This document shows, piece by piece, positions 4,828-63,239 of a DNA stretch of 64,000 bases. Where the stretch lies: the NCBI RefSeq assembly GCF_053078305.1, contig NZ_CP166875.1. One strand, written 5' to 3'. Each line of letters begins with the position of its first letter. The stretch's first letter is position 1. A program made the translations under genes and the position numbers. Origin of the DNA: a plasmid. Under the pieces are notes generated by a model that was not told where the DNA came from, made no database searches, and saw only the letters and a program-made list of their open reading frames with translations.

Positions 4828-4835
4828 AAACACCT

Positions 4836-5015: not shown

Positions 5016-5041
5016 CTTAAACAAAAAGAGGAATATTTTAA

Positions 5042-5374: not shown

Positions 5375-5602
5375 TATCTGACTCATTTTATGTGCATCGG
5401 TCAGAAATGAATTAATGATTTAACAGAGTGAATATCCGGTATCGTTTATCTAATTGCTGCCAGTCTCAGAAAAAAGATAAATGGAGAAAGAAGTTAATCA
5501 ACGATCTTCGTTGTGTTTAACATGGCGTCAGTTATCTCCAGGCTTGCTCTATTGAGCACCTCATTATGACGATTAATTACTGTCTGTTTGCAGGAGAATT
5601 AT

Positions 5603-6241: not shown

Positions 6242-6618
6242 GTTTACCTGCCGGGTATTACCGGATTGAACCGGACATCCGTGCACTGGTGGCCGCGATG
6301 AACGTTCACGGATTCCGTACATATGCCTCCTGTCAGGGACATGGTTTCCCGGTCACAAAGCTGCTGCCTTATATTGCCTTTGCCTGTCCGGTAAAAATGA
6401 CTGCCCTTCTTGAGCAGCGACTGCGGCAGGATGCTGAATCAGCAATACCACGTCTGACATGGGGATGGTCGGTGAAGGGGGCTTTTAACAGTGACCTTCA
6501 GCTCTGTTTCCGGCTTCAGCCGGAAGGTCCTCATTGCTGGTATCACCGGTACTGTCGTCGTTCACTGCGTGCAGACTTCAGGACGCTGATATTGTTACTG
6601 AAGTCGTTATCTGAGTAG
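6238..6618 (+). CDS. hypothetical Cys/His-containing protein, not part of the F tra set
   Basis: 126 aa; ATGA overlap with trbC stop; no family recognised. Confidence 0.4.
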   Translation: MSLPAGYYRIEPDIRALVAAMNVHGFRTYASCQGHGFPVTKLLPYIAFACPVKMTALLEQRLRQDAESAIPRLTWGWSVKGAFNSDLQLCFRLQPEGPHCWYHRYCRRSLRADFRTLILLLKSLSE

Positions 6619-6699
6619 TAATCCCGGTACGCCAGGAAGCTCCATACACCAAAATCAACACCGTTCTGAAGTTGAGATGACATCACTTCATTCTCCAGT

Positions 6700-8616
6700 A
6701 TGGATCAGGTTATGAAAGAAAAGATAAATACCTTTTTCAGGTCTCTGAATGTTAATGACTCCGGAAGACCGCGCAATATTTGTGCAATTGTTTTTTTCCT
6801 GAGCTTTTCTGTATTTGCCGACAGCAACAGTGATTACCGGGCAGGTTCCGATTTTGCCCGTCAGATCCAGGGGCAGGGTATTGGCAGTATTCAGAGTTTT
6901 AATCCGCAGGAGAGTATCCCCGGGTATAACGCGAACCCGGATGAGACGCAGTATTACGGTGGGGTGACTGCCGGCGGGGATGGCGGTCTGAAAAATAACG
7001 GCACCACACAATGGGCAACCAGTGAAACCGGCAAAACCATCACAGAGTCATTCATGAACAAGCCGAAAGACATTCTGTCACCGGATGCGCCGTTTATTCA
7101 GACCGGCAGGGATGTGGTGAACCGGGCTGACAGTATCGTGGGAAATACCGGACAGCAGTGCAGTGCGCAGCAGATAAACCGCAGTGAATTCACAAACTAT
7201 ACCTGTGAACGTGACACGATGGTGGAGGAATATTGTTCCAGGACAGCCAGGATCACAGGAGACTGGAAATACACGGATGAATATCGTGAGGTGACGATAC
7301 CGCACTCACAGTTCCGGTTCAGTATGAACGGTCTGAAACTGGTGTTCAGCGTTACCGTACCTGTTGCCGGGACAGTGGAAAGTGCCTCGCTGTCGGCTCA
7401 TGCAGGGCTATATTTCCTTAACTCCCGTTACGACTTTATGAACACAGCCTTTAATGTGCAACTGGTTACAGGACAGAGCGGGACTTTCACCATACCTGTG
7501 CCCTCCGGGTTTTCTGTCACACAGGGGCAGGTTCTGACCGGTAGTGGCTGTACTGCAAACGGTAATTGCCTCCCGCACGGGAATGGTGACAGGATGGTCT
7601 ATGAATCGCTTGTCAGTGGTGCTTCCACCTTTACGCTGAAACTCAGGATGAAGGTCCGTGATAAGGAATGGGTTCCACGGGTGGAGTGGGTGGAGAGTTG
7701 TCCGTTTAATAAAGCGGATGGCGTGCTGAAAGGCACTGAGTGTTCAGAGCCGGGTGGTACGAAAACGGGTGTGATGGAAGGTAAAACCTGGAGCATCACA
7801 CAGGCGTGCTGGGCATACCGGGATAAATATGTCACACAGTCCGCAGATAACGGCACCTGTCAGAAATATGTCGATAATCCGGCCTGTACGCTGGCCTCAC
7901 GTCAGTGCGCGTTTTATTCCGATGAGGGAGCTTGTCTGCATGAGTATGCCACGTACTCCTGCGAGTCCAGAACGTCCGGAAAAGTGATGGTCTGTGGTGG
8001 TGATGTCTTCTGCCTTGACGGTGAATGCGACAAGGCGCAGAGCGGAAAAAGCAGTGATTTTGGTGAGGCAGTATCACAGCTGGCTGCGCTTGCCGCCGCA
8101 GGTAAGGATGTTGCCGCCCTGAATGGTGTGGATGTCAGGGCTTTCACGGGCGAGGCGAAATTCTGCCGTAAGGCCGCAGCCGGCTTCAGTAACTGCTGTA
8201 AGGATGGTGGCTGGGGTCAGGATGTGGGTTTGGCGAAGTGCAACAGCGAAGAAAAGGCGCTGGGAAAGGCAAAGGACAACAAACTGACGGTGAGTGTGGG
8301 CGAGTTCTGCTCCCGGAAAGTGCTGGGTGTCTGTCTGCAGAAAAAGCGCAGTTACTGCCAGTTTGATTCGAAGCTGGCGCAGATAGTCCAGCAGCAGGGG
8401 CGTAACGGGCAGTTGCGTATCGGGTTTGGCAGCGCAAAAAGTCCTGACTGCCGGGGAATAACCGTGGATGAACTGCAGCGTATTAAGTTCGACCAGCTGG
8501 ACTTCACTAACTTCTACGAAGACCTGATGAATAACCAGAAAATCCCGGATAATGGTGCGCTGACCGAAAAAGTGAAAGAGCAGATTGCCGGTCAGCTGAA
8601 ACAGGTGGGGCAGTAA
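6700..8616 (+). CDS. traN: TraN mating pair stabilisation protein
   Basis: Large Cys-rich protein with signal peptide; matches remembered TraN motifs; a later in-frame start at 6712 is possible. Confidence 0.9.
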   Translation: MDQVMKEKINTFFRSLNVNDSGRPRNICAIVFFLSFSVFADSNSDYRAGSDFARQIQGQGIGSIQSFNPQESIPGYNANPDETQYYGGVTAGGDGGLKNNGTTQWATSETGKTITESFMNKPKDILSPDAPFIQTGRDVVNRADSIVGNTGQQCSAQQINRSEFTNYTCERDTMVEEYCSRTARITGDWKYTDEYREVTIPHSQFRFSMNGLKLVFSVTVPVAGTVESASLSAHAGLYFLNSRYDFMNTAFNVQLVTGQSGTFTIPVPSGFSVTQGQVLTGSGCTANGNCLPHGNGDRMVYESLVSGASTFTLKLRMKVRDKEWVPRVEWVESCPFNKADGVLKGTECSEPGGTKTGVMEGKTWSITQACWAYRDKYVTQSADNGTCQKYVDNPACTLASRQCAFYSDEGACLHEYATYSCESRTSGKVMVCGGDVFCLDGECDKAQSGKSSDFGEAVSQLAALAAAGKDVAALNGVDVRAFTGEAKFCRKAAAGFSNCCKDGGWGQDVGLAKCNSEEKALGKAKDNKLTVSVGEFCSRKVLGVCLQKKRSYCQFDSKLAQIVQQQGRNGQLRIGFGSAKSPDCRGITVDELQRIKFDQLDFTNFYEDLMNNQKIPDNGALTEKVKEQIAGQLKQVGQ

Positions 8617-8629
8617 GGTCGGGAAAATA

Positions 8630-8887
8630 ATGAAAGTCATATTCACGTCGAATCGTCTTGTTGATTTTCTTATCCGGCTTGTTATTACAGCAATTGTCAT
8701 TTCCCCGGTAATTATCTGGTCGTGGGATACGGTAAAAGAAACCACGGCAGGCGGGGTGCTTGCTGCTGCTTTCATTATCCTTTACTCCGGTGTGCTCCTG
8801 TTTATTCTGTATGGTTGTTTTTCTGCACTGGCTGACCTGCAGAAACCTGATGAAAGAAAAAGTGATGAAAGGAATGAAGATGAATAA
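8630..8887 (+). CDS. trbE: TrbE
   Basis: 85-aa hydrophobic protein in the F TrbE position. Confidence 0.65.
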   Translation: MKVIFTSNRLVDFLIRLVITAIVISPVIIWSWDTVKETTAGGVLAAAFIILYSGVLLFILYGCFSALADLQKPDERKSDERNEDE

Positions 8888-9623
8888 AGCATTACTGCCG
8901 CTGTTACTCTGCTGCTTTATTTTTCCGGCGTCAGGGAAAGATGCAGGCTGGCAGTGGTATAACGAGAAAATAAATCCGAAGGAAAAAGAAAATAAACCAG
9001 TACCAGCAGCTCCCCGTCAGGAGCCGGATATTATGCAGAAACTGACCGCGCTGCAGACGGCAACAAAGCGGGCGCTGTACGAAGCCATTCTGTATCCCGG
9101 CGTGGATAATTTTGTGAAATATTTCCGGCTGCAGAATTACTGGACTCAGCAGGCCGGGCTTTTCACCATGAGCGCCAAAAAGGCCATGCTGGCACATCCT
9201 GAACTGGACTATAACCTGCAGTACAGCCATTACAACGGCACGGTACGGAACCAGCTGGCAGCAGACCAGGCGCAGCAGCGACAGGCGATTGCCAGACTGG
9301 CAGAGCATTACGGCATTATGTTTTTTTACCGGGGGCAGGACCCCATCGACGGGCAGCTGGCGCAGGTCATTAATGGCTTCCGGGATACGTATGGTCTGAG
9401 TGTTATTCCCGTTTCCGTGGATGGCGTGATTAATCCACTATTGCCGGATTCCCGGACTGACCAGGGGCAGGCGCAGCGCCTCGGCGTGAAATATTTCCCG
9501 GCCATGATGCTGGTAGACCCGAAACAGGGCAGTGTTCGTCCATTATCATACGGCTTTATTTCGCAGGATGACCTGGCAAAACAGTTCCTGAACGTATCTG
9601 AAGATTTTAAACCGAATTTTTAA
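8880..9623 (+). CDS. traF: TraF (thioredoxin-fold pilus assembly protein)
   Basis: Start set at MNKALLPLLL (8880) within the longer ORF 8760..9623; 247 aa; matches remembered F TraF N-terminus. Confidence 0.9.
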   Translation: MNKALLPLLLCCFIFPASGKDAGWQWYNEKINPKEKENKPVPAAPRQEPDIMQKLTALQTATKRALYEAILYPGVDNFVKYFRLQNYWTQQAGLFTMSAKKAMLAHPELDYNLQYSHYNGTVRNQLAADQAQQRQAIARLAEHYGIMFFYRGQDPIDGQLAQVINGFRDTYGLSVIPVSVDGVINPLLPDSRTDQGQAQRLGVKYFPAMMLVDPKQGSVRPLSYGFISQDDLAKQFLNVSEDFKPNF

Positions 9624-9636
9624 CCAAAGGATATAT

Positions 9637-9978
9637 ATGCATACAGGGGATTTGTGTTTTTTTACAGGTGCCAGCCTGTTTATCGTGGGGGGTGTTGGTT
9701 ATTTCTTTACAGGACCAAATAATAAAGGAGTTTATCTGCTGAGCTCGTTTGTCTTCTTTGTAGTAAATGTCATAAGTGTATGTGTGCTGCCAGATAATTT
9801 CTTGTTTCTTTGTGGTGCGGTTATGAATCAGTGTGCCGTACCCGTTGTTTCAATGGCAGTCGGTACCATTCCGGTTATCACGAAGTTCGAGAGGTTCAGA
9901 AGAATATTTGTCTGTATTATGTTGTCATCAGCATGGTCAGGAGTAATGTGGTTTTTTATTATTTCATTAGTGAAATGA
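9637..9978 (+). CDS. trbA: TrbA
   Basis: 113-aa hydrophobic protein in the F TrbA position. Confidence 0.55.
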   Translation: MHTGDLCFFTGASLFIVGGVGYFFTGPNNKGVYLLSSFVFFVVNVISVCVLPDNFLFLCGAVMNQCAVPVVSMAVGTIPVITKFERFRRIFVCIMLSSAWSGVMWFFIISLVK

Positions 9979-10303
9979 CTGGTGCTAATTTGTCATAAAT
10001 GACAAATCCAATAGTGAGGTTGATTACCACAGACCAGAGGATAAACCAGACTGCTATCCAGTGACTTCTGAATAATTCACAAAAATAAACATAGATGATT
10101 AGAAATAGCCATATCACAACAGCGATGATTGCTATAAATAACAGTATCGTCACAAATAAATCAGCAAAGGTTTTAATGGGGAAGGAATGCAATAATGAAT
10201 ACACCAGTAAAGCAAAAGCCGCATTACCTGATAATGACTCTCTTATGATGTTTCTCACTATTTCCAGTTTTTCTTTGAAAGATAACTTTTTCATATAACA
10301 CAC
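9959..10303 (-). CDS. artA: ArtA-like antisense-strand ORF
   Basis: 114-aa hydrophobic ORF on opposite strand between trbA and traQ, as artA in F. Confidence 0.4.
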   Translation of the reverse strand: MCYMKKLSFKEKLEIVRNIIRESLSGNAAFALLVYSLLHSFPIKTFADLFVTILLFIAIIAVVIWLFLIIYVYFCELFRSHWIAVWFILWSVVINLTIGFVIYDKLAPVISLMK

Positions 10304-10375
10304 TGATTAATTTCACGAAAGTTAAGCAGGTTATATACGTGAATAAATTCATGTAAACCACAACAGGATATTCAA

Positions 10376-10666
10376 ATGATAAGTAAACACAGATTCTCTT
10401 TACCCCGACTGGATATTACGGGGATGTGGGTATTTTCCCTGGGTGTCTGGTTCCATATTGTTGCCCGTCTGGTTTACAGAAAACCCTGGATGGCTTTCTT
10501 TCTGGCAGAGCTTATTGCAGCCATTCTCGTTCTGTTTGGCGCATACCAGATACTGGATACATGGATAGCCCGCGTCAGTCAGGAAGAGCGTGAGGCACTG
10601 GAAGTCAGACAGCAGTTGTTACTGAGAGAACGGAAGGATAATGATGATGAACATGTTTCCCGTTAA
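10376..10666 (+). CDS. traQ: TraQ pilin chaperone
   Basis: 96 aa, TM segment, F synteny. Confidence 0.8.
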   Translation: MISKHRFSLPRLDITGMWVFSLGVWFHIVARLVYRKPWMAFFLAELIAAILVLFGAYQILDTWIARVSQEEREALEVRQQLLLRERKDNDDEHVSR

Positions 10667-11198
10667 ATCGCTGTCCGTTGTCCTGCTTTTTCTGGCCAGC
10701 TGTACACAGGCATCCACACGTGCGGAAATCGAGCGACTCTGGCATCCGGAGGGAATGGCAGCACGGACAACTCAGCCGGCAGCAGACGCACAGGTGCGAC
10801 AGGAGAAAGCAGCAACCCGCTGGTTCCGCCTCAGCAACGGAACTCAGGTCAATCTTGCTGACTGGAAAGTGGTGCTGTTCATGCAAGGGCGATGTCCGTA
10901 CTGTCACCAGTTTGACCCGGTACTGAAACAACTGGCGCTGCAGTACGGATTTTCCGTATTTCCCTATACCCTGGATGGTCAGGGTGATACGGCCTTTCCG
11001 CAGGCGTTACCTGCACCACCGGATGTACTGAAAACATTCTTCCCGAATATCCCGGTGGCCACACCGACCACCTTCCTGGTCAACGTCAACACGCTTGAGG
11101 CATTACCGCTTTTACAGGGGGCAACGGATGCCGCCGGTTTTATGGCGCGGATGGATACCGTTCTGCAGATGTACGGAGGGAAAAAAGGTGCGAAATAA
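10641..11198 (+). CDS. trbB: TrbB thioredoxin-like disulfide isomerase
   Basis: 185 aa, signal peptide, CPYC motif. Confidence 0.85.
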   Translation: MMMNMFPVKSLSVVLLFLASCTQASTRAEIERLWHPEGMAARTTQPAADAQVRQEKAATRWFRLSNGTQVNLADWKVVLFMQGRCPYCHQFDPVLKQLALQYGFSVFPYTLDGQGDTAFPQALPAPPDVLKTFFPNIPVATPTTFLVNVNTLEALPLLQGATDAAGFMARMDTVLQMYGGKKGAK

Positions 11199-11412
11199 GC
11201 AGGTGGTGTTACTCATTGCCGGAATATCCGGCGTCGCGACGGGAATAATCGTCAGCCTGAATATCCCCTTTATCCGTCAGGGACTTTTTTATCCCGCCAG
11301 CCCTGCAGAAATTGTCGTTTCGCTGTGTCTTACCTTTTCTGTTTCTGTTGTGTTTTTGTGGGGGCAATTGTGGGATGGATTTCAGTATCTGAAATATATT
11401 ACAGCCGCATGA
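11188..11412 (+). CDS. trbJ: TrbJ
   Basis: Small hydrophobic protein; GTG start at 11188 inferred inside ORF 11095..11412. Confidence 0.5.
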   Translation: MRNKQVVLLIAGISGVATGIIVSLNIPFIRQGLFYPASPAEIVVSLCLTFSVSVVFLWGQLWDGFQYLKYITAA

Positions 11413-11421
11413 ACGGTCTGA

Positions 11422-11847
11422 ATGAATCATCAGAAATATCAGAGGAAACTTATAATGAAAGAAAAAAGAAATGATGCGGAACAAAAAAACAGAAAAACTA
11501 AACGGGATTATGATTATGAACGCAGGGTTTCTGATATATATTTTGATCTGTTTTTTGTGTTCGTTGCTGCCGGAACTTTTTTATGGGTGATTATGCACAG
11601 TATTTTTGATGCCTGTATTGATTCGTGGAAAGCGGACCCGAAATTACTTAATTTCCACTATATGTGGAACATCCTGATGTATGTCATTCCGTATACGTTA
11701 TGGGCGTTTGCAGGTGGATTTCTTATCGTATACGTCAGGAACCCTTTAAATGAATTAATAAACGGGGGGATCAGGATATTCCGGCTGAAACGCCGTATGC
11801 GCCGGGATAACAAATTAAGGGAGGGTGGCAATAATGCTTCGCATTAA
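11422..11847 (+). CDS. trbF: TrbF
   Basis: 141-aa ORF with TM segments in the F TrbF position. Confidence 0.6.
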   Translation: MNHQKYQRKLIMKEKRNDAEQKNRKTKRDYDYERRVSDIYFDLFFVFVAAGTFLWVIMHSIFDACIDSWKADPKLLNFHYMWNILMYVIPYTLWAFAGGFLIVYVRNPLNELINGGIRIFRLKRRMRRDNKLREGGNNASH

Positions 11848-13207
11848 ACCTCTTCTGGTTCTTTGTGCCGCTTTACTGACGGTCACACCTGCAGCGTCAG
11901 CGGATGTGAACAGCGACATGAACCAGTTCTTCAACAAGCTGGGCTTTGCCACCAATACCACCCAGGCCGGAGTCTGGCAGGGGCAGGCTGCCGGGTATGC
12001 CTATGGCGGTTCTCTGTATGCCCGTAATCAGGTCAGAAATATCCAGCTTATCTCCATGACACTGCCCGACATCAATGCAGGGTGTGGTGGCATCGATGCC
12101 TATCTCGGCTCATTCAGTTTTATTAATGGCGAGCAGCTGCAGCGTTTTGTTAAGCAGATTATGAGTAACGCGATGGGGTACTTTTTTGACCTTGCCCTGC
12201 AGACAACGGTGCCCGAAATCAAAACCGCGAAAGACTTCCTGCAGAAGATGGCGAATGACATTAACAGTATGAACCTCAGCTCCTGTCAGGTGGCACAGGG
12301 GATTGTCGGAGGATTATTTCCTCAGACTCAGGTGTCACAGCAGAAGGTCTGTCAGGATATTGCAGGTGAGAGCAATATTTTCGCCGACTGGGCCGCGTCC
12401 CGTCAGGGCTGCACGGTTGGGGGGCAGTCATCGTCTGTTCGTGACAAGGCCAGTGACAAAGATAAGGAACGGGTGCTGAAGAACATAAATATCATCTGGG
12501 ACTCGCTGTCCAAAAACAGGATGCTTGATGGTAACAAAGAGCTGAAAGAGTTCATTATGACGCTCACAGGTACGCTGATTTTTGGTGAAGACAGCGAGAT
12601 TACCCCCCTGCCGGCGCGTACCACTGACCGCGATATCCTCCGGGCGATTATGGAGGGGGGAACGGCAAAAATTTACCACTGCAACGATTCGGACAAGTGT
12701 CTGAAGGTGGTGGCGGATGCAAATGTGACCATCGCCCGGGATAAAGCCCTGAAATCACAGATTACAAAACTGCTCACCAGTATTCAGAATAAAGCCGTGA
12801 GTGACACTCCGCTGGATGACAGGGAAAAAGGCTTCATTTCCAGCACCACCGTCCCCGTCTTTAAATATCTTATTGACCCGCAGATGCTCGGTGTGTCCAG
12901 CAGCGTGGTTTACCAGCTGACGGACTATATCGGCTACGACATCATGCTCCAGTACATTCAGGAACTGCTTCAGCAGGCCCGGGCCATGATTGCCACCGGG
13001 AACTATCCACAGACCGTGCTGGACAGTGTGCTGGAGAATCTGAATCAGGCACAGCAACAGATTGCGGTTTTCCAGGGGCAGGTAAAGGTCCAGCAGGATG
13101 CACTGCTGGTTGTTGACCGTCAGATGAGCTACATGCGCCAGCAGCTGTCCGCCCGTATGCTCAGCCGTTACCAGAACAACTATCACTTCGGAGGGAGCAC
13201 GCTGTGA
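11825..13207 (+). CDS. traH: TraH
   Basis: 460 aa with signal peptide; size and synteny match F TraH. Confidence 0.9.
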   Translation: MAIMLRIKPLLVLCAALLTVTPAASADVNSDMNQFFNKLGFATNTTQAGVWQGQAAGYAYGGSLYARNQVRNIQLISMTLPDINAGCGGIDAYLGSFSFINGEQLQRFVKQIMSNAMGYFFDLALQTTVPEIKTAKDFLQKMANDINSMNLSSCQVAQGIVGGLFPQTQVSQQKVCQDIAGESNIFADWAASRQGCTVGGQSSSVRDKASDKDKERVLKNINIIWDSLSKNRMLDGNKELKEFIMTLTGTLIFGEDSEITPLPARTTDRDILRAIMEGGTAKIYHCNDSDKCLKVVADANVTIARDKALKSQITKLLTSIQNKAVSDTPLDDREKGFISSTTVPVFKYLIDPQMLGVSSSVVYQLTDYIGYDIMLQYIQELLQQARAMIATGNYPQTVLDSVLENLNQAQQQIAVFQGQVKVQQDALLVVDRQMSYMRQQLSARMLSRYQNNYHFGGSTL

Positions 13208-16047
13208 ATGAAGTCTATGTGATTGCCGGTGGTGAGTGGTTGCGCAATAACCTGAACGCCATTGCCGCTTTTATGGGGACCCGGACGTGGGATTCCATTG
13301 AAAAAATTGCGCTCACATTATCTGTTCTCGCAGTGGCTGTGATGTGGGTACAACGGCACAACGTGATGGATTTGCTGGGCTGGGTGGCCGTGTTTGTGCT
13401 TATCAGCCTGCTGGTTAATGTCCGCACATCGGTGCAGATTATTGATAACAGTGACCTGGTTAAGGTTCACCGGGTGGACAATGTGCCGGTCGGTCTGGCG
13501 ATGCCACTTTCACTGACGACCCGTATCGGGCATGCGATGGTGGCCGGCTATGAGATGGTGTTCGCTCAGCCGGACAGCGCCACCTACAGCAAGACAGGCA
13601 TGCTGTTCGGGGCGAACCTGATTGTGAAAAGCACCGATTTCCTGTCCCGGAATCCGGAAATCATCAATCTGTTTCAGGACTACGTCCAGAACTGCGTGCT
13701 GGGTGATATTTACCTGAACCATAAATACACGCTGGAAGACCTGATGGCCTCCTCTGACCCGTACACCATAATCTTTTCTCAGCCCAGCCCTTTACGTCAG
13801 GTGCCGAATAATAATTACAGTTTTCTGCAAAGCTCAGAGCCGTTTGTGTCCTGTAAGGACGCATCCGTCGGACTGAAGGATAAGCTGAATTTTGATACGA
13901 ATACCGGAGGCAAGACCTGGAATTATTATGTGCAGCAGATATTTGGCGGCAGGCCGGACCCTGACCTGTTATTCAGACAACTGGTGAGTGACAGTTACAG
14001 TTATTTCTACGGCTCCAGCCAGTCTGCCAGCCAGATTATGCGCCAGAACGTCACCATGAATGCCCTGAAAGAGGGTATCACCAGTAATGCGGCCCGTAAC
14101 GGTGATACCGCCAGCCTGGTGAATCTGGCCACCACCTCATCGATGGAGAAACAGCGTCTGGCACATGTCTCCATTGGTCATGTGCTGATGCGAAACCTGC
14201 CGATGGTACAGACCATTCTGGTGGGCATTACTATTGGTATCTTCCCGCTCCTGGTGCTGGCTGCGGTCTTCAACAAACTGACGCTGTCCGTCCTGAAAGG
14301 CTATGTGTTTGCCCTGATGTGGTTCCAGACTTGGCCGTTGCTGTATGCCATCCTGAACAGTGCCATGACATTCTATGCGAAGCAGAACGGGGCTCCGGTC
14401 GTGCTCTCTGAACTCTCTCAGATACAGCTGAAATACTCCGACCTGGCATCAACCGCAGGTTATCTTTCAGCAATGATCCCCCCTCTGTCATGGATGATGG
14501 TACGAGGCCTTGGTGCCGGATTTTCCAGCGTATACAGCCACTTTGCGTCTTCTTCCATCACGCCAACCGCCAGTGCGGCAGGCAGTGTGGTTGACGGTAA
14601 TTACTCCTACGGCAACATGCAGACGAATAACGTGAACGGCTTCAGCTGGAGCACCAACAGCACCACGTCATTTGGTCAGATGACGCACCAGACCGGTAGT
14701 GGTGCAACCGCCACGCAGACCCGTGACGGCAGTATGGTGATGGACGCCAGTGGGGCAATGTCCCGTTTGCCGGTTGGTATTAATGCAACGCGTCAGATTG
14801 CAGCAGCGCAACAGGAAATGGCCCGGGAGTCGATGAATAAGGCGGAAAGTGCCCTGCATGGTTTCAGCAGCAGTATTGCCAGTGCCTGGAACACACTCAG
14901 CCAGTTTGGCTCTAACCGGGGAAGCAGTGATTCAGTCACCAGTGGCGCTGACAGCACGATGAGCGCGCAGGACTCCATGATGGCCAGCCGTATGCGCAGT
15001 GCGGTGGAAAGCTATGCGAAGGCGCATAATATCAGCGATGAGCAGGCGACAAGAGAACTGGCATCCAGAAGTACGAGAGGTTCTGCGGGGATGTATGGTG
15101 ATGCTCATGCTGAATGGGGGGTTAAACCTAAAATTCTTGGTGTTGGTGGTGGCGCAGGTGTCAGAGGTGGTGGTAGGACAAGTATTGACTGGAATGATGA
15201 GGATGCGCATCAGGCCAGCAGTGGTTCACGGGCCAGCCATGATGCCCGTCATGATATTGATGCCAGAGCTACACAAGACTTTAAAGAAGCAAGCGATTAC
15301 TTTACCAGTCGCAAGGTCAGTGAATCCGGCAGCCATACTGACAATAATGCCGATTCCAGGGTGGACCAGCTTTCTGCAGCCCTGAACTCAGCGAAACAGA
15401 GTTACGACCAGTACACGACGAATATGACCCGCAGCCATGAATATGCTGAAATGGCCTCCCGTACTGAAAGCATGAGTGGGCAGATGAGTGAAGACCTGTC
15501 ACAACAGTTTGCACAGTATGTGATGAAACACGCGCCGCAGGATGCAGAAGCTATTCTGACAAACACCAGTTCACCGGAGATTGCAGAACGTCGTCGGGCA
15601 ATGGCCTGGTCTTTTGTTCAGGAACAGGTACAGCCTGGTGTTGATAACGCCTGGCGTGAATCCCGTGGCGATATCGGTAAAGGAATGGAGAGCGTACCTT
15701 CGGGCGGTGGCAGCCAGGATATTATTGCAGACCATCAGGGGCATCAGGGTATTATTGAGCAAAGAACGCAGGACAGTAATATCCGTAACGATGTGAAGCA
15801 GCAGGTTGATAATATGGTCACAGAATATCGGGGCAATATCGGGGATACTCAGAACAGCATCCACGGCGAGGAAAATATTGTAAGAGGGCAGTATTCTGAA
15901 CTGCAAAATCACCATAAAACAGAGGCATTATCTCAGAATAATAAATATAATGAAGAAAAATCAGCTCAGGAAGGAATGCCCGGTGCTGACAGCCCACAGG
16001 AACTTATGAACAGGGCAAAAGAGTATCAGGATAAGTATAAGCAATAA
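13204..16047 (+). CDS. traG: TraG (mating pair stabilisation / entry exclusion determinant)
   Basis: 947 aa, polytopic N-domain plus hydrophilic C-domain; size and synteny match F TraG. Confidence 0.9.
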   Translation: MNEVYVIAGGEWLRNNLNAIAAFMGTRTWDSIEKIALTLSVLAVAVMWVQRHNVMDLLGWVAVFVLISLLVNVRTSVQIIDNSDLVKVHRVDNVPVGLAMPLSLTTRIGHAMVAGYEMVFAQPDSATYSKTGMLFGANLIVKSTDFLSRNPEIINLFQDYVQNCVLGDIYLNHKYTLEDLMASSDPYTIIFSQPSPLRQVPNNNYSFLQSSEPFVSCKDASVGLKDKLNFDTNTGGKTWNYYVQQIFGGRPDPDLLFRQLVSDSYSYFYGSSQSASQIMRQNVTMNALKEGITSNAARNGDTASLVNLATTSSMEKQRLAHVSIGHVLMRNLPMVQTILVGITIGIFPLLVLAAVFNKLTLSVLKGYVFALMWFQTWPLLYAILNSAMTFYAKQNGAPVVLSELSQIQLKYSDLASTAGYLSAMIPPLSWMMVRGLGAGFSSVYSHFASSSITPTASAAGSVVDGNYSYGNMQTNNVNGFSWSTNSTTSFGQMTHQTGSGATATQTRDGSMVMDASGAMSRLPVGINATRQIAAAQQEMARESMNKAESALHGFSSSIASAWNTLSQFGSNRGSSDSVTSGADSTMSAQDSMMASRMRSAVESYAKAHNISDEQATRELASRSTRGSAGMYGDAHAEWGVKPKILGVGGGAGVRGGGRTSIDWNDEDAHQASSGSRASHDARHDIDARATQDFKEASDYFTSRKVSESGSHTDNNADSRVDQLSAALNSAKQSYDQYTTNMTRSHEYAEMASRTESMSGQMSEDLSQQFAQYVMKHAPQDAEAILTNTSSPEIAERRRAMAWSFVQEQVQPGVDNAWRESRGDIGKGMESVPSGGGSQDIIADHQGHQGIIEQRTQDSNIRNDVKQQVDNMVTEYRGNIGDTQNSIHGEENIVRGQYSELQNHHKTEALSQNNKYNEEKSAQEGMPGADSPQELMNRAKEYQDKYKQ

Positions 16048-18603: not shown

Positions 18604-20802
18604 ATGAGTTTTAACGCAAAGGATATGACCCAGGGCGGTCAGATTGCGTCCATGCGTATCCGCATGTTCAGCCAGATCGCCAATATCATGCTTTACTGCC
18701 TGTTTATTTTTTTCTGGATCCTCGTTGGTCTGGTTTTATGGGTAAAAATAAGCTGGCAGACGTTTGTGAACGGCTGTATTTACTGGTGGTGCACCACGCT
18801 GGAAGGCATGCGGGATTTAATCAGGTCCCAGCCGGTCTATGAGATCCAGTATTACGGCAAAACCTTCCGGATGAACGCGGCTCAGGTACTGCATGATAAA
18901 TACATGATCTGGTGCGGTGAGCAGCTATGGTCTGCATTCGTTCTGGCGTCTGTCGTGGCCCTGGTTATCTGCCTGATCACCTTCTTTGTTGTCTCCTGGA
19001 TTCTGGGGCGTCAGGGTAAACAGCAGAGTGAAAATGAAGTCACAGGTGGTCGTCAGCTGACTGACAATCCGAAAGAGGTTGCCAGGATGCTGAAAAAAGA
19101 CGGCAAGGACTCCGATATCCGGATTGGCGATCTGCCGATTATCCGGGATTCTGAAATCCAGAATTTCTGTCTGCACGGCACGGTCGGGGCCGGTAAGTCG
19201 GAAGTTATCCGTCGTCTGGCCAACTACGCCCGTCAGCGCGGTGATATGGTGGTGATTTATGACCGATCAGGGGAATTTGTTAAAAGTTACTATGACCCGT
19301 CCATCGATAATATCCTGAATCCGCTGGATGCCCGCTGTGCCGCCTGGGATTTGTGGAAGGAGTGCCTGACACAGCCGGATTTTGATAATACGGCAAATAC
19401 CCTGATCCCGATGGGCACAAAAGAAGACCCGTTCTGGCAGGGCTCAGGACGCACCATTTTTGCGGAAGCGGCGTACCTGATGCGTAATGACCCCAACCGC
19501 AGCTACAGCAAACTGGTGGATACACTACTCTCCATCAAAATTGAAAAACTGCGTACCTTCCTGCGTAACTCACCGGCGGCCAACCTGGTGGAAGAGAAAA
19601 TCGAGAAAACGGCGATTTCCATCCGTGCTGTGCTGACCAACTACGTGAAAGCCATCCGTTACCTGCAGGGGATTGAGCATAATGGTGAGTCCTTCACCAT
19701 CCGTGACTGGATGCGGGGTGTCCGTGAAGATAAGAAAAACGGCTGGCTGTTTATTTCGTCGAATGCCGACACCCATGCTTCCCTGAAACCGGTGATCTCC
19801 ATGTGGCTGTCCATCGCCATTCGTGGCCTGATGGCGATGGGGGAGAACCGTAACCGTCGTGTGTGGTTCTTCTGTGATGAGTTACCCACGTTACACAAAC
19901 TGCCGGACCTGGTGGAGATCCTGCCGGAAGCCCGTAAGTTCGGTGGCTGTTATGTGTTCGGTATCCAGTCCTATGCCCAGCTGGAAGATATCTACGGTGA
20001 GAAATCGGCAGCCTCGCTGTTTGACGTCATGAACACCCGTGCCTTTTTCCGTTCCCCCAGCCATAAGATTGCAGAGTTCGCTGCCGGTGAAATTGGTGAG
20101 AAAGAGCACCTGAAAGCCAGCGAGCAGTATTCCTACGGTGCTGATCCGGTACGTGACGGGGTATCGACCGGTAAGGATATGGAGCGCCAGACGCTGGTCA
20201 GTTATTCCGACATTCAGTCTCTGCCGGATCTGACCTGTTATGTCACCCTGCCCGGACCGTATCCGGCAGTAAAACTCTCCCTGAAATATCAGGCACGACC
20301 GAAGGTTGCTCCGGAGTTTATTCCGCGTGACATCAATCCTGAAATGGAGAACCGTCTGAGTGCCGTACTTGCCGCAAGGGAAGCAGAAGGTCGTCAGATG
20401 GCCAGCCTCTTCGAACCGGATGTCCCGGAGGTTGTTTCCGGAGAAGACGTGACTCAGGCTGAACAGCCGCAACAGCCGCAACAGCCGCAACAGCCGCAAC
20501 AGCCGCAACAGCCGCAACAGCCGGTGTCTCCTGCCATCAACGATAAGAAGTCAGATGCAGGTGTGAATGTTCCGGCAGGGGGGATCGAGCAGGAGCTGAA
20601 AATGAAACCGGAAGAAGAGATGGAACAGCAACTGCCACCCGGGATCAGTGAATCCGGTGAAGTGGTGGATATGGCCGTTTATGAGGCATGGCAACGGGAG
20701 CAGAATCCGGATATCCAGCAGCAGATGCAGCGCCGTGAAGAGGTGAATATCAACGTGCACCGGGAGCGCGGGGAGGATGTTGAGCCGGGAGATGATTTCT
20801 GA
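18604..20802 (+). CDS. traD: TraD type IV coupling protein
   Basis: 732 aa, N-terminal TM helices, Walker [10 protein letters not shown]-terminal QQP repeats; N-terminus matches remembered F TraD. Confidence 0.92.
20464..20523. repeat. tandem 9-bp repeat (CAGCCGCAA-type, ~6 units) encoding the PQQ repeat of the TraD C-terminal tail
   Basis: Read directly from sequence. Confidence 0.9.
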
Positions 20803-57942: not shown

Positions 57943-58722
57943 TTAAGGAATTCTTTTGAGCATAGACACCGCATCGGACTCAGGCATCGAAAACTGCACC
58001 CGGTGCCGTGCAGCCACATCCAGCGCAAACACCTTCGTGTAGACCTCTGTTGAGCTGATGGACTTATGCCCCATCAGGCTCTGCAGGACCTTCAGTGGTA
58101 TACCGGCATACAGCATGTGCATCGCATAGGAATGGCGGAACGTATGTGGAGTGACCGGGACAGAAAACGTCACACCATCAGCGGCAGCGGCGGCAACCGC
58201 TTCCCCAATCCAAGTCCTGGCCGTTCTGTCCGTCACTTCCCAGATCCGCGCTTTCTCTGTCCTGCCTGTTCGTTTATTACGCCGTTCCATGGGGATTTTC
58301 AGTGTGGCCATCATCGTCTGCAGCTGGCTGACGTACTGGTGATCTGAGAGCGGAACCAGGCGGTGTGTCTGCGCACCGGCTGCCGGACGTCCTGCCGTTC
58401 TGCCGGCTTTTTCCGTTCGCTGCTTGAGGGTCGCCAGCTGGACGAACGGGTAGGGAGATGTCAACTGAAAGTCATTCCGGGTCAGGGCCAGCGCTTCATT
58501 AATACGCGCGCCGGTGTTCCATAAAGTGGCCAGCAGCATTTTTCGGTGAAGGTCGGGCACGTAGTGGAGCAGGGCGCTGATTTCGGGCGCCAGCAGGTAT
58601 TTCGGCAGTTCGTCCTGAACGAGGGCCATCTGGCGCAGGGCCAGCGCCGCAGGGTAGTCGATGGCTACCGGCAACTGAGCAGTTGTCAACGAAACACCCT
58701 GACCTGGAACTGTCGGCATCAT
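57943..58722 (-). CDS. tyrosine site-specific recombinase (multimer-resolution type)
   Basis: 259 aa with catalytic-region motifs HTFRHSYA and Y. Confidence 0.85.
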   Translation of the reverse strand: MMPTVPGQGVSLTTAQLPVAIDYPAALALRQMALVQDELPKYLLAPEISALLHYVPDLHRKMLLATLWNTGARINEALALTRNDFQLTSPYPFVQLATLKQRTEKAGRTAGRPAAGAQTHRLVPLSDHQYVSQLQTMMATLKIPMERRNKRTGRTEKARIWEVTDRTARTWIGEAVAAAAADGVTFSVPVTPHTFRHSYAMHMLYAGIPLKVLQSLMGHKSISSTEVYTKVFALDVAARHRVQFSMPESDAVSMLKRIP

Positions 58723-58734: not shown

Positions 58735-59127
58735 TTAGCCATTGAGTCCATTGTGCTCTCCGGCTTCATTGGTTGTTGCGTGTCCGGCTTCAGCTTTAAT
58801 GATCGCGGTGACGGCTTTGTCTACTGAGAATGGGCGCAACTCCTGATTACTGAACCGAACTTTAAAACAAAGGTGCTGGGCATACTGCCCGTTCTGCCGT
58901 AACTCGTAATCAACAACAAAGGCAACGATGTGGCGGCCGTTCAGTTCCCAGCCTGGCGAAGCACCGCAGTAGCGGATGTAGAGATCTGACAGCTCGTCAA
59001 AGAACTCGCCTTCAGTTACTGGGCCGGATGCTCTTACCTCGTCACGCCGGGTCATGAAGTGATCCACGGCTGCCTTTTTGGAAGAAAACTCCCGTCCCCC
59101 GATAATCACCTTAGTGGAACGCCCCAT
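58735..59127 (-). CDS. hypothetical protein upstream of the recombinase
   Basis: 130 aa; ATG preceded by aaggag. Confidence 0.5.
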   Translation of the reverse strand: MGRSTKVIIGGREFSSKKAAVDHFMTRRDEVRASGPVTEGEFFDELSDLYIRYCGASPGWELNGRHIVAFVVDYELRQNGQYAQHLCFKVRFSNQELRPFSVDKAVTAIIKAEAGHATTNEAGEHNGLNG

Positions 59128-60121
59128 CCTTAACTCCTTTCTGGTTATGCAGCATTATTGTGAAATCCCGCCAGCCCTGGTGTGAGTGCCCTGCTTTCCG
59201 GCAGGACACTCAGTTTATCCCGGCGTGTAAGAAAAACCCTTTTTATCGAAGGCGGCTTTCTTACATACCTGGTTTACCGCTGGAGGAGCAGATACACGAT
59301 ACTAAGTATCGTAGGCAGGCATTTATAAAGCAGTGTCAGTACCATCTTTTTAATTGATAACTTCATAAACTAGCTGATATCTGTCTTGCTTTTCGTTGGT
59401 TTCATAGAAGCTCCTTTGCTTCTGATTAAAGCCAACATTATGCGCAAAGTTACATTTGAGTAGGGGATCAACAAAAAATTTCTTCCCTTCTCAAGATCAT
59501 TCTGATGACGATTCTGATCGCCCTCTCCAGTACAGTGATAACGCAGAAAACAATCACCATCAGCAACCATCCATACCACCGATAACCTGCCTGACTGTCA
59601 CTCTGATGGATTTTCCCTGCCGTAATGTTTACTTCTTATGATAATTCGCAGACATATAAAAACTACACTAAATTACTGGATGCCGGTTTTCAGATGATCC
59701 GATTTTCTGACTATACACGACTTTCCGGAAGTGTAGCACGCCTGAAGAATAAGCGAAGCGCTGTTTTCCGCCCCAGCGCGGCGCATCACAGGTCAGGGAG
59801 ATGACACAACATATAGTGTCACAAGCAGATGAATCCGGCACTACATATTGTGCTGACGGAAGATGGCGCTGTGCGGAGGGAGAGGAAGATCCGTGACCCA
59901 GGGTTTTCGGATCTGCGCGGCAGAAAAGCCGGAAACCGGATCTGCGCGGCGGGAAACGGGCAGGTGATATGATAATTAAGCAACACACATAAATTCATAG
60001 CAGACATGATTTTAATCATCAGTAATGAAATAATATCTGATATTATCAGAAATCGATAACACAAAAATCATATAGAATTTGATTTTTACCTGTCAGAACA
60101 TTATCAGATGGAGCGCGCAGG

Positions 60122-60379
60122 ATGGATGAAGAAAGGGTGTTTTCACTCAGCTATGAACAACTGACCCGGTTTGCGGAAAAACGCATCCGGGAATGCAATC
60201 TGGACAGCCAGGGCGCGATTTATCTCTGCGAGTCAGCCAAAGCCGGAGCCGTGCTGATCTTCTGGCATGAACTGGCCATAAATGGCTATGCCTCAATGAA
60301 TGCCATAAAGAGACAGGAGCTCATTGACGCCGACTTTCAGCGCCTCAGAAACCTCATCTGGCCGGAGAATGACAGGTAA
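60122..60379 (+). CDS. hypothetical protein
   Basis: 85-aa ORF whose stop overlaps next gene start. Confidence 0.4.
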   Translation: MDEERVFSLSYEQLTRFAEKRIRECNLDSQGAIYLCESAKAGAVLIFWHELAINGYASMNAIKRQELIDADFQRLRNLIWPENDR

Positions 60380-60969
60380 TGACCCAAAGCCGCCGACCGT
60401 CGCCACTGCAGCGGAGAGTGCTGATTGTGCTGGCTGCCCTTGATGAAAAACGGCCAGGCCCCGTGCTGACGCGGGACCTGGAACGGGTGCTGGAGCGAAG
60501 CGGGGAAGCCCCGGTCTACGGGCCAAACCTGCGCGCCTCCTGCCGTCGTCTGGAGGATGCCGGCTGGCTGCGTACCCTGCGCGCTCCGAACCTGCAGCTG
60601 GCAGTGGAGCTGACGGACGCCGGCCGGGCCGTGGCACAGCCTCTGCTGCTGGCAGAACAGGACCGCCTCCGGGCAGAACAGCGTGCGGCAGAAGTCGTCG
60701 TACTGCCGCTGATCCCGGCAGCAGGTCTGCCCGCAGACGGCACTTCTGCCACTGATCTGGCGGTGGAGCTGAACGGCATAACGTATCAGGCCTGCCGTGG
60801 GGATTTTGTGGTGCGTCTCGACGGCAGCACCTGTCTGCAGTTATGGAATAAAGAAGGCAGGGTGGTACGCCGGGAGGGCGATCCGCTGGAAGTGGCGCAG
60901 TGGCTGCAGGCCTGTCATGACGCAGGAATAGAAGTTCGCGTACAGATAAATGAAAGTGCCGCTCCGTAA
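60379..60969 (+). CDS. hypothetical GC-rich protein, possible winged-helix N-domain
   Basis: 196 aa; markedly GC-rich codon usage; overlap with upstream ORF. Confidence 0.45.
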   Translation: MTQSRRPSPLQRRVLIVLAALDEKRPGPVLTRDLERVLERSGEAPVYGPNLRASCRRLEDAGWLRTLRAPNLQLAVELTDAGRAVAQPLLLAEQDRLRAEQRAAEVVVLPLIPAAGLPADGTSATDLAVELNGITYQACRGDFVVRLDGSTCLQLWNKEGRVVRREGDPLEVAQWLQACHDAGIEVRVQINESAAP

Positions 60970-60988
60970 GAACACGCCTGTGCACGGT

Positions 60989-61336
60989 TTACACATCATC
61001 CCATGGTGGCAGCCGGTTAACTTTCCTGCGCCACCAGTGGAAAGAGGCCATGCACAGTCCGAACAAAAAACCCCCCGTGATACTTATAATAATGGCCTCA
61101 CCTGCCACCATTCCTGACGGCCCCCAGTAGATAAACCACATTGCACATCCCCAGGAAATGCCCCATAAGCCCCCCATCAGCACCGTGACCTGCCAGAACG
61201 GCATAAAGGGTAATGGCAGAAGCCGGATACCCAGCCGCCAGAGAATACGCAGAAGAGGAGGGGCATAATTGCTCCGCCACATCTTTTTGCTGTCCATCAG
61301 GGCAATGGCCCGGGCTTTTTTCTGCTCAAAGGTCAC
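60989..61336 (-). CDS. hypothetical membrane protein
   Basis: 115 aa with predicted TM helices. Confidence 0.4.
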   Translation of the reverse strand: MTFEQKKARAIALMDSKKMWRSNYAPPLLRILWRLGIRLLPLPFMPFWQVTVLMGGLWGISWGCAMWFIYWGPSGMVAGEAIIISITGGFLFGLCMASFHWWRRKVNRLPPWDDV

Positions 61337-61464: not shown

Positions 61465-61800
61465 ATGAACAGAAAATATTATTTTAATAATATGTGGTGG
61501 GGATGGTTTATGGGTGGGTATACTCTGTATATGTCATGGGATTATGAGTTTAAATACAGATTGCTGTTCTGGTGTATTTCTCTCTGCGGAATGGTTTTGT
61601 ATCCGGTTGCCAGATGGTGTATTGAAAATACTGCCCTGAAATTTACCCGGCCTGATTTCTGGAACAGCGGTTTTTTTGCTGATACTCCCGGAAAAATGGG
61701 ATTACTTGCGGTTTATACGGGTACTGTTTTCATATTATCTCTTCCGTTAACTCTGATATATATTCTTTCTGTTATCATAAAAAGGCTGTCTGTAAGATAG
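61465..61800 (+). CDS. colicin Ia/Ib-type immunity protein
   Basis: 111-aa polytopic protein starting MNRKYYFNNMWWGW, recalled as colicin Ia immunity; convergent with colicin gene. Confidence 0.8.
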   Translation: MNRKYYFNNMWWGWFMGGYTLYMSWDYEFKYRLLFWCISLCGMVLYPVARWCIENTALKFTRPDFWNSGFFADTPGKMGLLAVYTGTVFILSLPLTLIYILSVIIKRLSVR

Positions 61801-61821: not shown

Positions 61822-63239
61822 TTAAATGCCCCAGAACTTATTCGCTTTTTCCACAAGCGTTTCATCAATCAGTGCACCGGTGACAGCCATCAGTAAACCA
61901 TACCCGATAATGCCTAAAGCGCTTCCGGTAAGAATACTGAAGACCAGAGCAACAAGAGCCGTTGCGGCATTACCTGCTATGATGGTTTCTGTTTTAACAA
62001 AAAAGGACGCCAGTTATCTGTCCGGGCAGCCTTACCAAACTCAGTGATCCAGTCAGCAAAATTTGTAATTTTTCCTGCATATCCCAGTCCGCGACTGAAC
62101 CTGTTCAGATTAGACGATATATCAGACAGCTTCACAGACTCAAGGGCTGCGGCAATCGCTGCACGATCTTTTGCATTAATTTTTTTGTTAATGTCAGTCC
62201 GGTACTTTTCATACGTTTTTAATGCCTCTTCAACATTACGTATTTTCTTCCCTTTAGCCTGCCCGGCCATCTCTCTGGCTAACTGCTCAGCTTTTGCACC
62301 ATATTTTTCTGAAACTGATTTCAGGAACTCTGTTGTGAAATTAATTGCGTCTTTCGTTGCCTTCAGTTCATCCTGTTTTCTTTTCTCTTCCGCTATCTTC
62401 TGATTGATGCCGGCAAGCTGGTTACGGGTATTCTCTTTTTCCTTCAACAGGGCATTAAGAGCGTCATTTGCATGCTTTTGCTCATTTGTTCTGGCACTGA
62501 GGTTATTTCTCACCGAATTTACCGCAGATTCAGCAGAGGTGATTTTATTTCTGGCATCAAGCAATCTTTGCCGTAACTTATCCCATTCAGTAACTTCAGC
62601 ATTATAAATTTTCTTGTCACCTTCCACATCCTCTGTCACCACCGGATTCCGGTCATTCAGAATATTGCGTTTATAGTCCAGACCGGAATGAGTCAGAAGA
62701 TAATTCAGGTTTGCACGGTTATCGATGACTGCGCTGGTTGTGATTTTTATCGTATCGGCAAATCTCGGATCACCGCTCACAACAATAGAATGATTTGTTG
62801 ATGAACGCCCCGGGAATTTTTCAGAGGAAACTATCGTTTTGCCGTCAGGCGTGTTTTTCTGTTGCGTCAGCTGTTGTTCAGCTCTGGTTAATGCATTACG
62901 GGCCGTGTTAAGCGATTCCGTCACCGAACTGAGTTTATTCCGGGCCTCTGAAATGGCCCTGTCATTCCGTGTCTGCTGCTCGAGCAGACGGGCCTGTTGT
63001 GCATCAAGAACGGCAAGGGCTGCCCCGCCCTTTTTTTCCAGCTCTGACAACCGCGTATTCAGAATACCTTTTCTGCGCTCGTATTCAGCAAGCATATCAG
63101 CGGCCTTCTTGTCTGCGTTCTGCGCATCCTTCTGCCGTTTTTCAGCCTGTTCAATTAACGACCTGGCCTCGCGGGGAGATATACGAAGAGAATCAGCATC
63201 AGCAAACAGCATCCGGCTCTCTGTATGTGTCAACGCCAC
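61822..63239 (-). pseudogene. cia: colicin Ia-like pore-forming colicin, 5'-truncated and frameshifted
   Basis: 420-aa ORF matches colicin Ia from HTESRMLFADADSL onward; final ~50 codons (channel domain, ending KFWGI) are in another frame after a T-run near 62005..62015; colicin Ia N-terminus (MSDPVRITNPG...) not found in any frame upstream. Confidence 0.75.

Follow-up and report, generated by a model that had tools for sequence, protein, structure and literature searches.

The adjacent genes ydfA and ydeA are carried by thousands of plasmids and are annotated as hypothetical throughout, which raises the question of what they do. We analysed them in a stretch of 64,000 nucleotides (nt) of a plasmid (NCBI RefSeq assembly GCF_053078305.1, contig NZ_CP166875.1), which is called the window here. 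A preliminary description, made from the sequence alone, had left the function of the two genes unassigned, and experimentally this still holds. Our answer is that ydfA-ydeA is probably an autorepressed regulator operon abutting the recombination site rfsF.

In the mechanism that we favour, YdeA dimers would bind 17-bp palindromes recurring across about 160 nt upstream of ydfA. One of these palindromes covers the predicted −10 element, and thus the operon would repress itself. The C-terminal domain of YdeA might link adjacent dimers or receive a signal, and YdfA, a small partner from the same message, may modulate YdeA. Transcription would continue into co-oriented downstream genes where these are present, as in an IncI1 plasmid of the R64 type, on which reverse transcription PCR showed ydfA-ydeA-ibfA-proQ to be one transcript (PMC12111858). 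In the window the DUF6404/ybaA gene is convergent, so the unit here would be just ydfA-ydeA.

The two genes and their products

The two overlapping open reading frames (ORFs) of 85 and 196 amino acids (aa) that the preliminary description had reported are present, and they share one base in TAATG. Start/stop overlaps of ydfA and ydeA were also found in other loci. Both ORFs are real genes and they are translationally coupled. Transcripts of both have been quantified on the ColV-Ia plasmid pS88 (PMC3438092). The gene order ydfA-ydeA-ibfA-proQ was confirmed in pS19, which represented the R64 type in our comparisons. When the window was compared with homologues at 47-97% protein identity, substitutions in the + frame were in excess at the third codon position (40, 30, and 106 at positions 1, 2, and 3 against L024; 74, 64, and 147 against L037; L numbers denote the genome loci compared). 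The proteins are called YdfA protein and YdeA protein in UniRef and AFDB, which are the ORF names of R64/ColIb-P9, and RefSeq labels both as hypothetical.

The distribution across plasmids, which the preliminary description had proposed as a check, is wide. The two-gene DNA matched at least 5,000 of the 72,556 PLSDB records (at least 7%), mostly conjugative plasmids, and the hosts among the matches listed were Escherichia (2,610), Klebsiella (1,600), and Salmonella (479). Carriers are IncI, IncF, and IncFIB(K) plasmids, including epidemic IncI1, IncF/ColV, and pESI-like plasmids and Klebsiella IncFIB(K) resistance/virulence plasmids. The pair is 90-99% identical across thousands of plasmids, colicin-type plasmids with nothing co-oriented downstream among them. 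There were 1,156 protein clusters of YdeA and 453 of YdfA.

With thousands of homologues and a substitution pattern of the + frame, the two outcomes that the preliminary description had named as fatal to the pair, ORFs lacking homologues and an antisense ORF (60293..60985, 230 aa) proving to be the real gene, did not come about. The antisense ORF is the longest in the interval, and if it were real the + strand ORFs would be spurious. But it has no family matches, and its translation is rich in Arg, Pro, and Ala and of low complexity. Among homologues of 41-46% GC, open stretches of the antisense frame are just 63-106 codons long, and therefore the length of the ORF here is a by-product of high GC. 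The substitution pattern tracks the + frame and not the antisense ORF, and the + strand product YdeA gives a confident fold prediction. The YdeA model together with the substitution and antisense-frame analysis refutes an antisense gene, and we regard such a gene as almost certainly non-existent.

The preliminary description had also taken both ORFs to be more GC-rich than their surroundings and to be of separate origin. The GC content was 0.60-0.69 across 60250-60850 and 0.39-0.43 in the flanks, and the contrast stands for ydeA but not for ydfA, as the rise is limited to ydeA. The GC content at third codon positions of ydeA (0.66) is close to its overall GC content (0.64), and thus composition contributes to the rise and not codon bias alone. 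The argument for a separate origin is supported in part only: the AT-rich promoter region of the operon is co-conserved with the GC-rich ydeA, and the GC boundaries do not match the mosaic breakpoints, which homology comparison between plasmids placed at rfsF (59926-59933) and at 61065.

A DNA-binding N-terminus had been expected for the larger protein, and structure prediction had been suggested to check it. An AlphaFold2 model of YdeA, made from a 17-sequence alignment, was confident (predicted local distance difference test score 89.4; low confidence in the linker) and is in line with the expectation. According to the model, YdeA has the winged-helix fold of MarR/PadR/HxlR-like regulators. 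The best Pfam matches, AbiEi_4 (E 0.07) and PaaX (E 0.18), are both winged helix-turn-helix (wHTH) families and both weak, and none of the 17 members matched at E 0.001 or better. Among the PHROGs, YdeA matched phrog_19460 (2e-7; function unassigned there), and PADLOC gave no significant match for YdeA or YdfA. An exhaustive HMMER scan of 1.84 billion representatives returned only 221 relatives. Among species genomes, only those of Enterobacterales contain the family, apart from a few contigs from metagenome-assembled genomes or contaminants that are labelled otherwise. The contexts of the most distant homologues were available from short contigs only.

The linker region of YdeA is prone to insertions and deletions, and some chromosomal homologues reach 300-430 aa. 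YdeA of the window ends with INESAAP and is followed by the convergent DUF6404 gene. That it might be a truncated remnant of the long form was rejected, since forms of about 195 aa are conserved down to about 30% identity. Two AFDB proteins of 98-109 aa (A0A745AH88 and A1Y2V6) are 35% identical to the YdeA winged helix with template modelling scores of 0.87-0.94. They are annotated as "Chromosome segregation protein ParM", which is implausible given their size, and may be stand-alone relatives of the YdeA DNA-binding domain.

At about 19 of the 27 genome loci, ydfA directly precedes ydeA; it is absent from the most distant ydeA loci. All of its clusters are labelled "hypothetical" or "YdfA protein", and it matched nothing in Pfam, NCBIfam, PADLOC, PHROGs, or PDB sequences, including any toxin family. 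Alignments of the families, used as queries, likewise had no significant match apart from the weak wHTH matches and phrog_19460 named above for YdeA. YdfA has diverged faster than YdeA, and it is mosaic: the YdeA of L014 is 97% identical, and the YdfA of this locus is closest to the L002 allele (about 61%). A long ORF in L031 that looked like a YdfA-YdeA fusion turned out to be a frame artefact, because a separate overlapping ydfA homologue of 88 aa is present.

A phased palindrome array beside rfsF

We aligned the 300 nt 5' of ydfA from 18 loci. Similarity starts abruptly at AGATCCG (59887) and reaches the start codon, so that about 235 nt are conserved in the 18 loci, and beyond this point the sequences are unrelated. 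The conserved region contains 17-bp palindromes of the form ATCATATC-N-GATATGAT with centres 36-37 bp apart. The octamers keep fixed offsets from the ydfA ATG (−157, −129/−120, −93/−84, and −56/−47) in about 19 loci, and they are 15-fold denser there than in the rest of these loci (3.25 against 0.21 per 200 nt). The TATGAT/ATCATA hexamers were observed 79 times against 4.3 expected, a count in which the loci are related and the trials not independent. Only the sequence upstream of ydfA/ydeA yielded palindromes of this type. One ATC-N-GATATGAT-type palindrome remains just upstream of ydeA homologues of Yersinia that lack ydfA, suggesting that the motif is tied to YdeA and not to YdfA.

The preliminary description had singled out a perfect 15-bp palindrome, TCTGATATTATCAGA, as a possible operator. 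It is present, and it overlaps the 8+1+8 palindrome ATAATATC-T-GATATTAT (60030-60046), which is in register with one conserved in the 18 loci, as well as the predicted −10. As an operator region this part is credible; it owes its meaning to the conservation in 18 loci, while the 15-bp palindrome alone is within chance. For a related IncI1 plasmid, a transcription start site 69 nt upstream of ydfA has been predicted with BProm (PMC12111858), and TATTAT (60041-60046) agrees with the −10/start position predicted there. The leader, nearly invariant in the 18-locus alignment, may also be written TTATCAGA(C/T)GGAGCGTGCAGGATG. Near ydfA, a promoter scan scored highest on the minus strand, for a promoter-like sequence at 60067-60096 (CTGACA-18-TATGAT, 10/12). 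The −10 of this sequence coincides with the left half of the third YdeA-type palindrome, its −35 part is specific to this plasmid clade, and it may drive a divergent or antisense transcript.

Two direct repeats had likewise been proposed as operators. The repeated sequence, CGGATCTGCGCGGC, is present in both copies and, two tandem-repeat arrays aside, no other exact 14-mer of the window recurs within 60 nt. Resampling with a Markov-1 model expects 0.00 such repeats, and thus this one is not due to chance. It is, however, part of the rfsF recombination junction and not an operator of ydfA-ydeA: it consists of the right arm of a 28-bp palindrome and a 29-bp partial duplication that was found in the window and L001 only, all other loci having a single copy. 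In the 18-locus alignment the GGATCT of the 28-bp palindrome is invariant, and a short GC-rich stretch lies next to it. Breakpoints against cargo-bearing plasmids fall between the repeat copies (59926-59933), and a further breakpoint between plasmids is at 59898. In ColIb-P9 the same 28-bp palindrome is at nt 15,610-15,637. The published description of this plasmid has "Col gene set 1487-15,609 ... to the rfsF site" (PMC8004404); the palindrome directly follows nt 15,609, and therefore it coincides with the published rfsF boundary. Two copies of the palindrome bracket a 1.9-kb DUF3800 insert in pS19, and the cargo of ColIb-P9 and pE-3S has the backbone rfsF on one side and a degenerate copy beside ydfA on the other.

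To the left of the palindrome are two inverted repeats, TGACAC-AACATATA-GTGTCA (59802-59821) and CGGCAC-TACATATT-GTGCTG (59836-59855), and the 127-nt unit 59795-59921 matched 3,814 PLSDB records. The rfsF site with about 60 bp conserved on its left also heads other modules, each with its own repeat array and gene. The gene after rfsF encodes a KfrA_N protein (Pfam, 9e-20) in pO157, L017, L018, and L023 and is ParA-like in L019. This recurring unit with distinct arrays suggests modules bounded by rfsF. The unit is about 90-120 bp long and has three parts, namely an inverted repeat whose 8-bp spacer is TACATnTT, a GC-rich stretch, and the palindrome of 28 bp; the operons that it heads include KfrA-like, ParA-like, DUF3800, and ydfA operons. 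Copies are located at 59795-59914 in the window and at L017:1555-1642, L018:1215-1302, L019:258-345, L023:2680-2767, L016:605-692, L030:596-683, L045:3806-3893 and 5795-5822, and L046:3495-3610. The GC-rich upstream element had no Rfam match; a structured RNA was rejected on this ground and because the 5' arm varies without compensation and GGATCT is invariant, which favours a DNA site.

Neighbouring genes and genes downstream of ydeA

The backbone of the window is that of an IncI-gamma/K1-like plasmid. Along it follow one another umuDC, parM, the genes for a ParA-family protein and a tyrosine recombinase, the ydfA-ydeA module, DUF6404, colicin Ia immunity, and colicin Ia. The coordinates of the features are listed in Table 1.

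Table 1. Features of the ydfA-ydeA region, in positions of the window
Feature	Positions	Strand	Description
ydfA	60122..60379	+	85 aa, orphan; conserved motifs FSLSYEQLT, W48, D-x-D-x-x-RL
ydeA	60379..60969	+	196 aa; predicted winged helix 9-78, long helix 80-104, flexible linker, beta/alpha C-terminal domain 127-190
Candidate operator array, octamer GATATGAT / ATCATATC	59966..60083		half-site 59966-59973; palindromes 59994-60010, 60030-60046, 60067-60083
15-bp palindrome TCTGATATTATCAGA	60036..60050		overlaps conserved palindrome 60030-60046 and putative −10 TATTAT (60041-60046)
Leader and ribosome-binding region	60097..60121	+	nearly invariant ACATTATCAGA(T/C)GGAGCG(C/T)GCAGG; GGAG at 60110-60113
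rfsF site, 28-bp palindrome AGATCCG-N14-CGGATCT	59887..59914		putative 11-6-11 Xer-type core; left boundary of the ydfA-ydeA module
Direct repeat CGGATCTGCGCGGC (59908-59921, 59937-59950)	59908..59956		rfsF right arm and leader 59908-59927; copy 59937-59956 offset by 29 bp
Conserved rfsF-proximal unit	59795..59886		two inverted repeats with 8-bp spacers; common to other plasmids and to module heads elsewhere
Xer-like tyrosine recombinase (ResD-type "site-specific integrase")	57943..58722	−	divergent from ydfA; neighbour, outside the operon
DUF6404/ybaA gene	60989..61336	−	convergent with ydeA, ends the transcription unit here; neighbour, outside the operon

The recombinase matched the phrog_216 integrase (3e-34) and, below cut-off, NCBIfam models of the XerD/XerC type, and it is called site-specific integrase in related plasmids. 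Its orthologue is downstream of ccdAB in pE-3S and pO157. A 130-aa ORF (58735-59127, − strand) directly upstream of the recombinase gene is probably in the same operon; it had weak PADLOC matches to HamC/DUF3223 (E 0.004-0.007) and no Pfam match. The ORF is in the segment 58680-59637, which varies among otherwise similar plasmids; others have a different ORF, of 137 aa, or ccdAB. A perfect 8+1+8 palindrome, ACGATACT-A-AGTATCGT (59296-59312), one of four such in the window, lies in a variable intergenic segment on the recombinase side.

On the other side, the stop codons of ydeA and DUF6404/ybaA are only 19 nt apart. The product of the latter gene matched phrog_31022 (7e-37), is annotated as a DUF6404 family protein in related plasmids, and is hydrophobic and membrane-protein-like by sequence. 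In pS88, the gene between imm and ydeA is named ybaA. It was up 5-9 fold in iron-poor medium, serum, and urine, alongside colicin Ia, but none of the changes was significant at p<0.05 (PMC3438092). In pS19, which is of the ibfA type, homology reaches 61065 and a ybaA remnant of the last 25 or so codons is left. DUF6404/ybaA is not the classical ibfA/abi gene of ColIb-P9, since ibfA of ColIb-P9 (13,401-13,745) is between ydfA and rfsF and not beside imm. The listed colicin Ia ORF (61977-63239, − strand) has just 420 aa, and related plasmids annotate a gene of 1,881 nt; its predicted C-terminus looks different from that of colicin Ia, and similarity to IncI plasmids ends near 63228. The colicin gene may thus be truncated or frameshifted here, and the immunity gene (61465-61800) is intact. 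Far from the operon, the two tandem-repeat arrays lie at 4853-4888 (period 7 nt) and 20462-20510 (period 9 nt). The pil genes of IncI1 plasmids have been noted to contain a 9-bp tandem repeat (PMC8004404).

No co-oriented gene comes after ydeA in the window or in any of the colicin-type plasmids. Co-oriented genes are found downstream in R64/pESI-type plasmids (ibfA-proQ) and in Klebsiella IncFIB(K) plasmids (other ORFs). In L043 (463-2460), an IncFIB(K) plasmid of Klebsiella, ORFs of 164 aa and 122 aa (the latter membrane-like) and an Hha-domain gene are co-oriented after ydfA-ydeA, and the 164-aa family (cluster C13) is also directly downstream in four genome loci. The genes directly 3' of ydeA are highly variable, and most have no PADLOC or NCBIfam match. 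They are not a split-off extension of the long-form YdeA, to which they showed no similarity.

Four overlapping genes, encoding proteins of 86 aa and 417 aa, a DUF6884 protein, and an SNase, were found in L002-L005, L017, and L018, and partly in L023. The DUF6884 protein matched PADLOC DpdC (7e-41) and the nuclease an SNc candidate (5e-15). These genes and the YdeA C-terminal extension of about 220 aa are absent from the window. In the Citrobacter/Enterobacter-type loci, ydfA, long ydeA (about 400-420 aa), DUF6884, and SNase genes occupy L002:7744-10407, L017:5738-8395, and L018:5738-10721, and a VapBC pair adjoins them in L002. It is possible that ydfA, long ydeA, DUF6884, and SNase form an uncharacterised four-gene defence-like operon.

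Autorepression, alternatives, and known systems

An autorepressed operon would account for a palindrome over the predicted −10, and the same slot offers an analogy, because in pO157 and at other loci a KfrA_N or ParA-like gene comes after rfsF, and between the two is a repeat array peculiar to that gene. Several points weigh against it. YdeA has no significant match in Pfam, NCBIfam, or PDB sequences, regulator families included. YdfA has no detectable relatives in the family searches, and its proposed role as a modulator of YdeA is a guess. The palindromes are assigned to YdeA from their co-conservation with the gene, and no YdeA-type motif was found at the three most distant ydeA loci (L010, L012, and L024). 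A scan for consensus sigma-70 promoters found none on the + strand upstream of ydfA in the window, where the −35 is poor. The 7+1+7 palindromes in the window number eight against 4.2 expected, which puts the lone 15-bp palindrome within chance. Finally, the commonest IncF variant of YdeA (169 aa) lacks residues 90-116 in frame, which is half of the long helix, and therefore the helix cannot be essential.

Since the array begins about 50 bp from the right arm of rfsF, a distance fixed in 18 of 18 aligned loci, YdeA (with YdfA) might instead coat the array as part of a plasmid-maintenance nucleoprotein module tied to rfsF, and assist or regulate ResD-rfsF recombination, be it in resolving multimers or in exchanging modules, or position the plasmid in a KfrA-like manner, with any control of transcription being secondary. 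The one-sided layout of about 160 bp resembles the accessory sequences of cer/psi-type resolution sites. The genes for the recombinase, ParA, and ParM adjoin the module, a recombinase homologue is within 6 kb at seven genome loci, and the pO157 protein encoded in this slot, beside repeats of its own, is of the KfrA_N type. But at many chromosomal loci ydfA-ydeA and an rfsF-like site occur with no recombinase within 6 kb, and there is no conserved NTPase partner. The same core carries different arrays in different modules, so that the arrays are module-specific, which fits promoters and operators better, and the palindrome over the predicted −10 looks like an operator. We consider a maintenance role unlikely. 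The variable genes downstream of ydeA bring up another role for the pair, as sensor or regulator of anti-phage or competition cargo (IbfA, or the DpdC-like DUF6884 protein and the SNase), the window then being a head without cargo. The cotranscribed ibfA confers phage resistance, and the four overlapping genes that include DUF6884 and SNase would be a second example. Yet a separate promoter is predicted for ibfA, and the gene is effective by itself on a vector, with an efficiency of plating of 0.05 alone against 0.01 for the whole operon (PMC12111858). Most of the downstream ORFs resemble no PADLOC or NCBIfam entry, PADLOC does not recognise YdeA or YdfA either, and the pair is kept at high identity in thousands of plasmids where it has no cargo to regulate. 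This role is in our view slightly more doubtful than one in maintenance.

A type II toxin-antitoxin pair is improbable. YdfA would be the toxin and YdeA an autoregulating DNA-binding antitoxin, with an AbiEi-like wHTH and a neutralising C-terminal domain. The two genes are small, overlapping, and cotranscribed in a relative (PMC12111858), one product is predicted to bind DNA, the promoter is rich in palindromes, and the genes are in a stability region where sister plasmids have ccdAB; the weak AbiEi_4 match and the fast divergence and mosaicism of YdfA, the latter seen in L014, are also in keeping with such a pair. On the other hand, YdfA belongs to no toxin family in the databases searched, no AbiEii-type nucleotidyltransferase is adjacent, YdeA occurs without YdfA at distant loci, and no growth-inhibition phenotype is reported in the literature found. 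More speculative than either the maintenance or the cargo role, but not as improbable as a toxin, is a general scheme in which enterobacterial plasmids and islands are built of rfsF-bounded modules, each starting with the 28-bp core and continuing with an array of sites for the DNA-binding protein that the module itself encodes, which would be YdeA, KfrA-like, or ParA-associated. The YdfA-YdeA array would then, beyond its part as an operator, be an accessory complex controlling ResD recombination, and so the exchange or resolution of cargo; we propose the pdif modules of Acinetobacter plasmids as an analogue.

The pair ydfA-ydeA has long been named, is uncharacterised, and is in no curated family. 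The fold assignment of YdeA, the candidate operator with its phasing, and the recognition of the direct repeat as part of an rfsF core that heads several different modules are new, while mosaicism mediated by rfsF has been described before (PMC8004404, PMC9412624). A pair found on at least 7% of PLSDB plasmids becomes a directly testable system, with a predicted fold for YdeA, a candidate operator, and a position next to rfsF. The probable junction sequence of rfsF has been identified at the edge of the variable Col/Delta region, where plasmids swap colicin, ibfA, and other cargo, and this helps in reading their mosaicism. If YdeA does control read-through into ibfA-type genes or rfsF recombination, it bears on phage resistance and on the assembly of accessory regions.

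Among known systems, YdeA can be likened to winged-helix autorepressors of the HxlR, PadR, MarR, and F-93 kinds (PDB 3df8; 4hqe, QsrR-DNA; 1tbx, SSV1 F-93). It differs from them in lacking a significant family match (Pfam E 0.07 or worse, NCBIfam none), in having three to four candidate operators phased at 36-37 bp instead of one, and in being preceded, in the plasmid clade, by a partner gene that looks obligatory. BrxR/CapW regulators of defence (wHTH-WYL) are comparable in that YdeA, likewise a predicted wHTH protein, heads operons with variable 3' genes that include ibfA, but YdeA had no PADLOC match and the pair is conserved where no effector follows. In IncN plasmids, conserved upstream (CUP) elements precede several plasmid operons and contain sites bound by the ArdK repressor (PMC6289460), whereas the element that recurs here is the rfsF unit and not the YdeA-type palindromes.

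The likeness to Xer core sites (dif, cer) and to rfsF-ResD concerns the direct repeat and not the two genes. The 28-bp palindrome can be read as 11-6-11 beside an Xer-like recombinase and marks mosaic junctions of the kind already described (PMC8004404, PMC9412624), and the window differs from rfsF elsewhere in carrying an extra half-site 29 bp downstream. In F, resD follows ccdAB, and the recombinase orthologues of pO157 and pE-3S are placed likewise. KfrA (Pfam KfrA_N, PF11740) occupies the same slot after rfsF and a short-repeat array in pO157 and several genome loci. Proteins of this type are autoregulated products of the plasmid backbone with an N-terminal DNA-binding domain followed by a helix, and YdeA is similar in this layout. 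But the two share no sequence similarity (BLASTP E 0.16), their repeat motifs differ (TGTATGTA-type for KfrA, GATATGAT for YdeA), and YdeA has a predicted globular C-terminal domain where KfrA has a long coiled coil. The partition systems of TubR, ParR, and ParG are set apart by the lack of an NTPase gene in the ydfA-ydeA operon, both in the window and in the 27 loci, and ParA and ParM, encoded close by, are each paired with another small protein. What ydfA-ydeA has in common with these systems is a set of iterated sites beside the gene, here three to four in number and phased at 36-37 bp.

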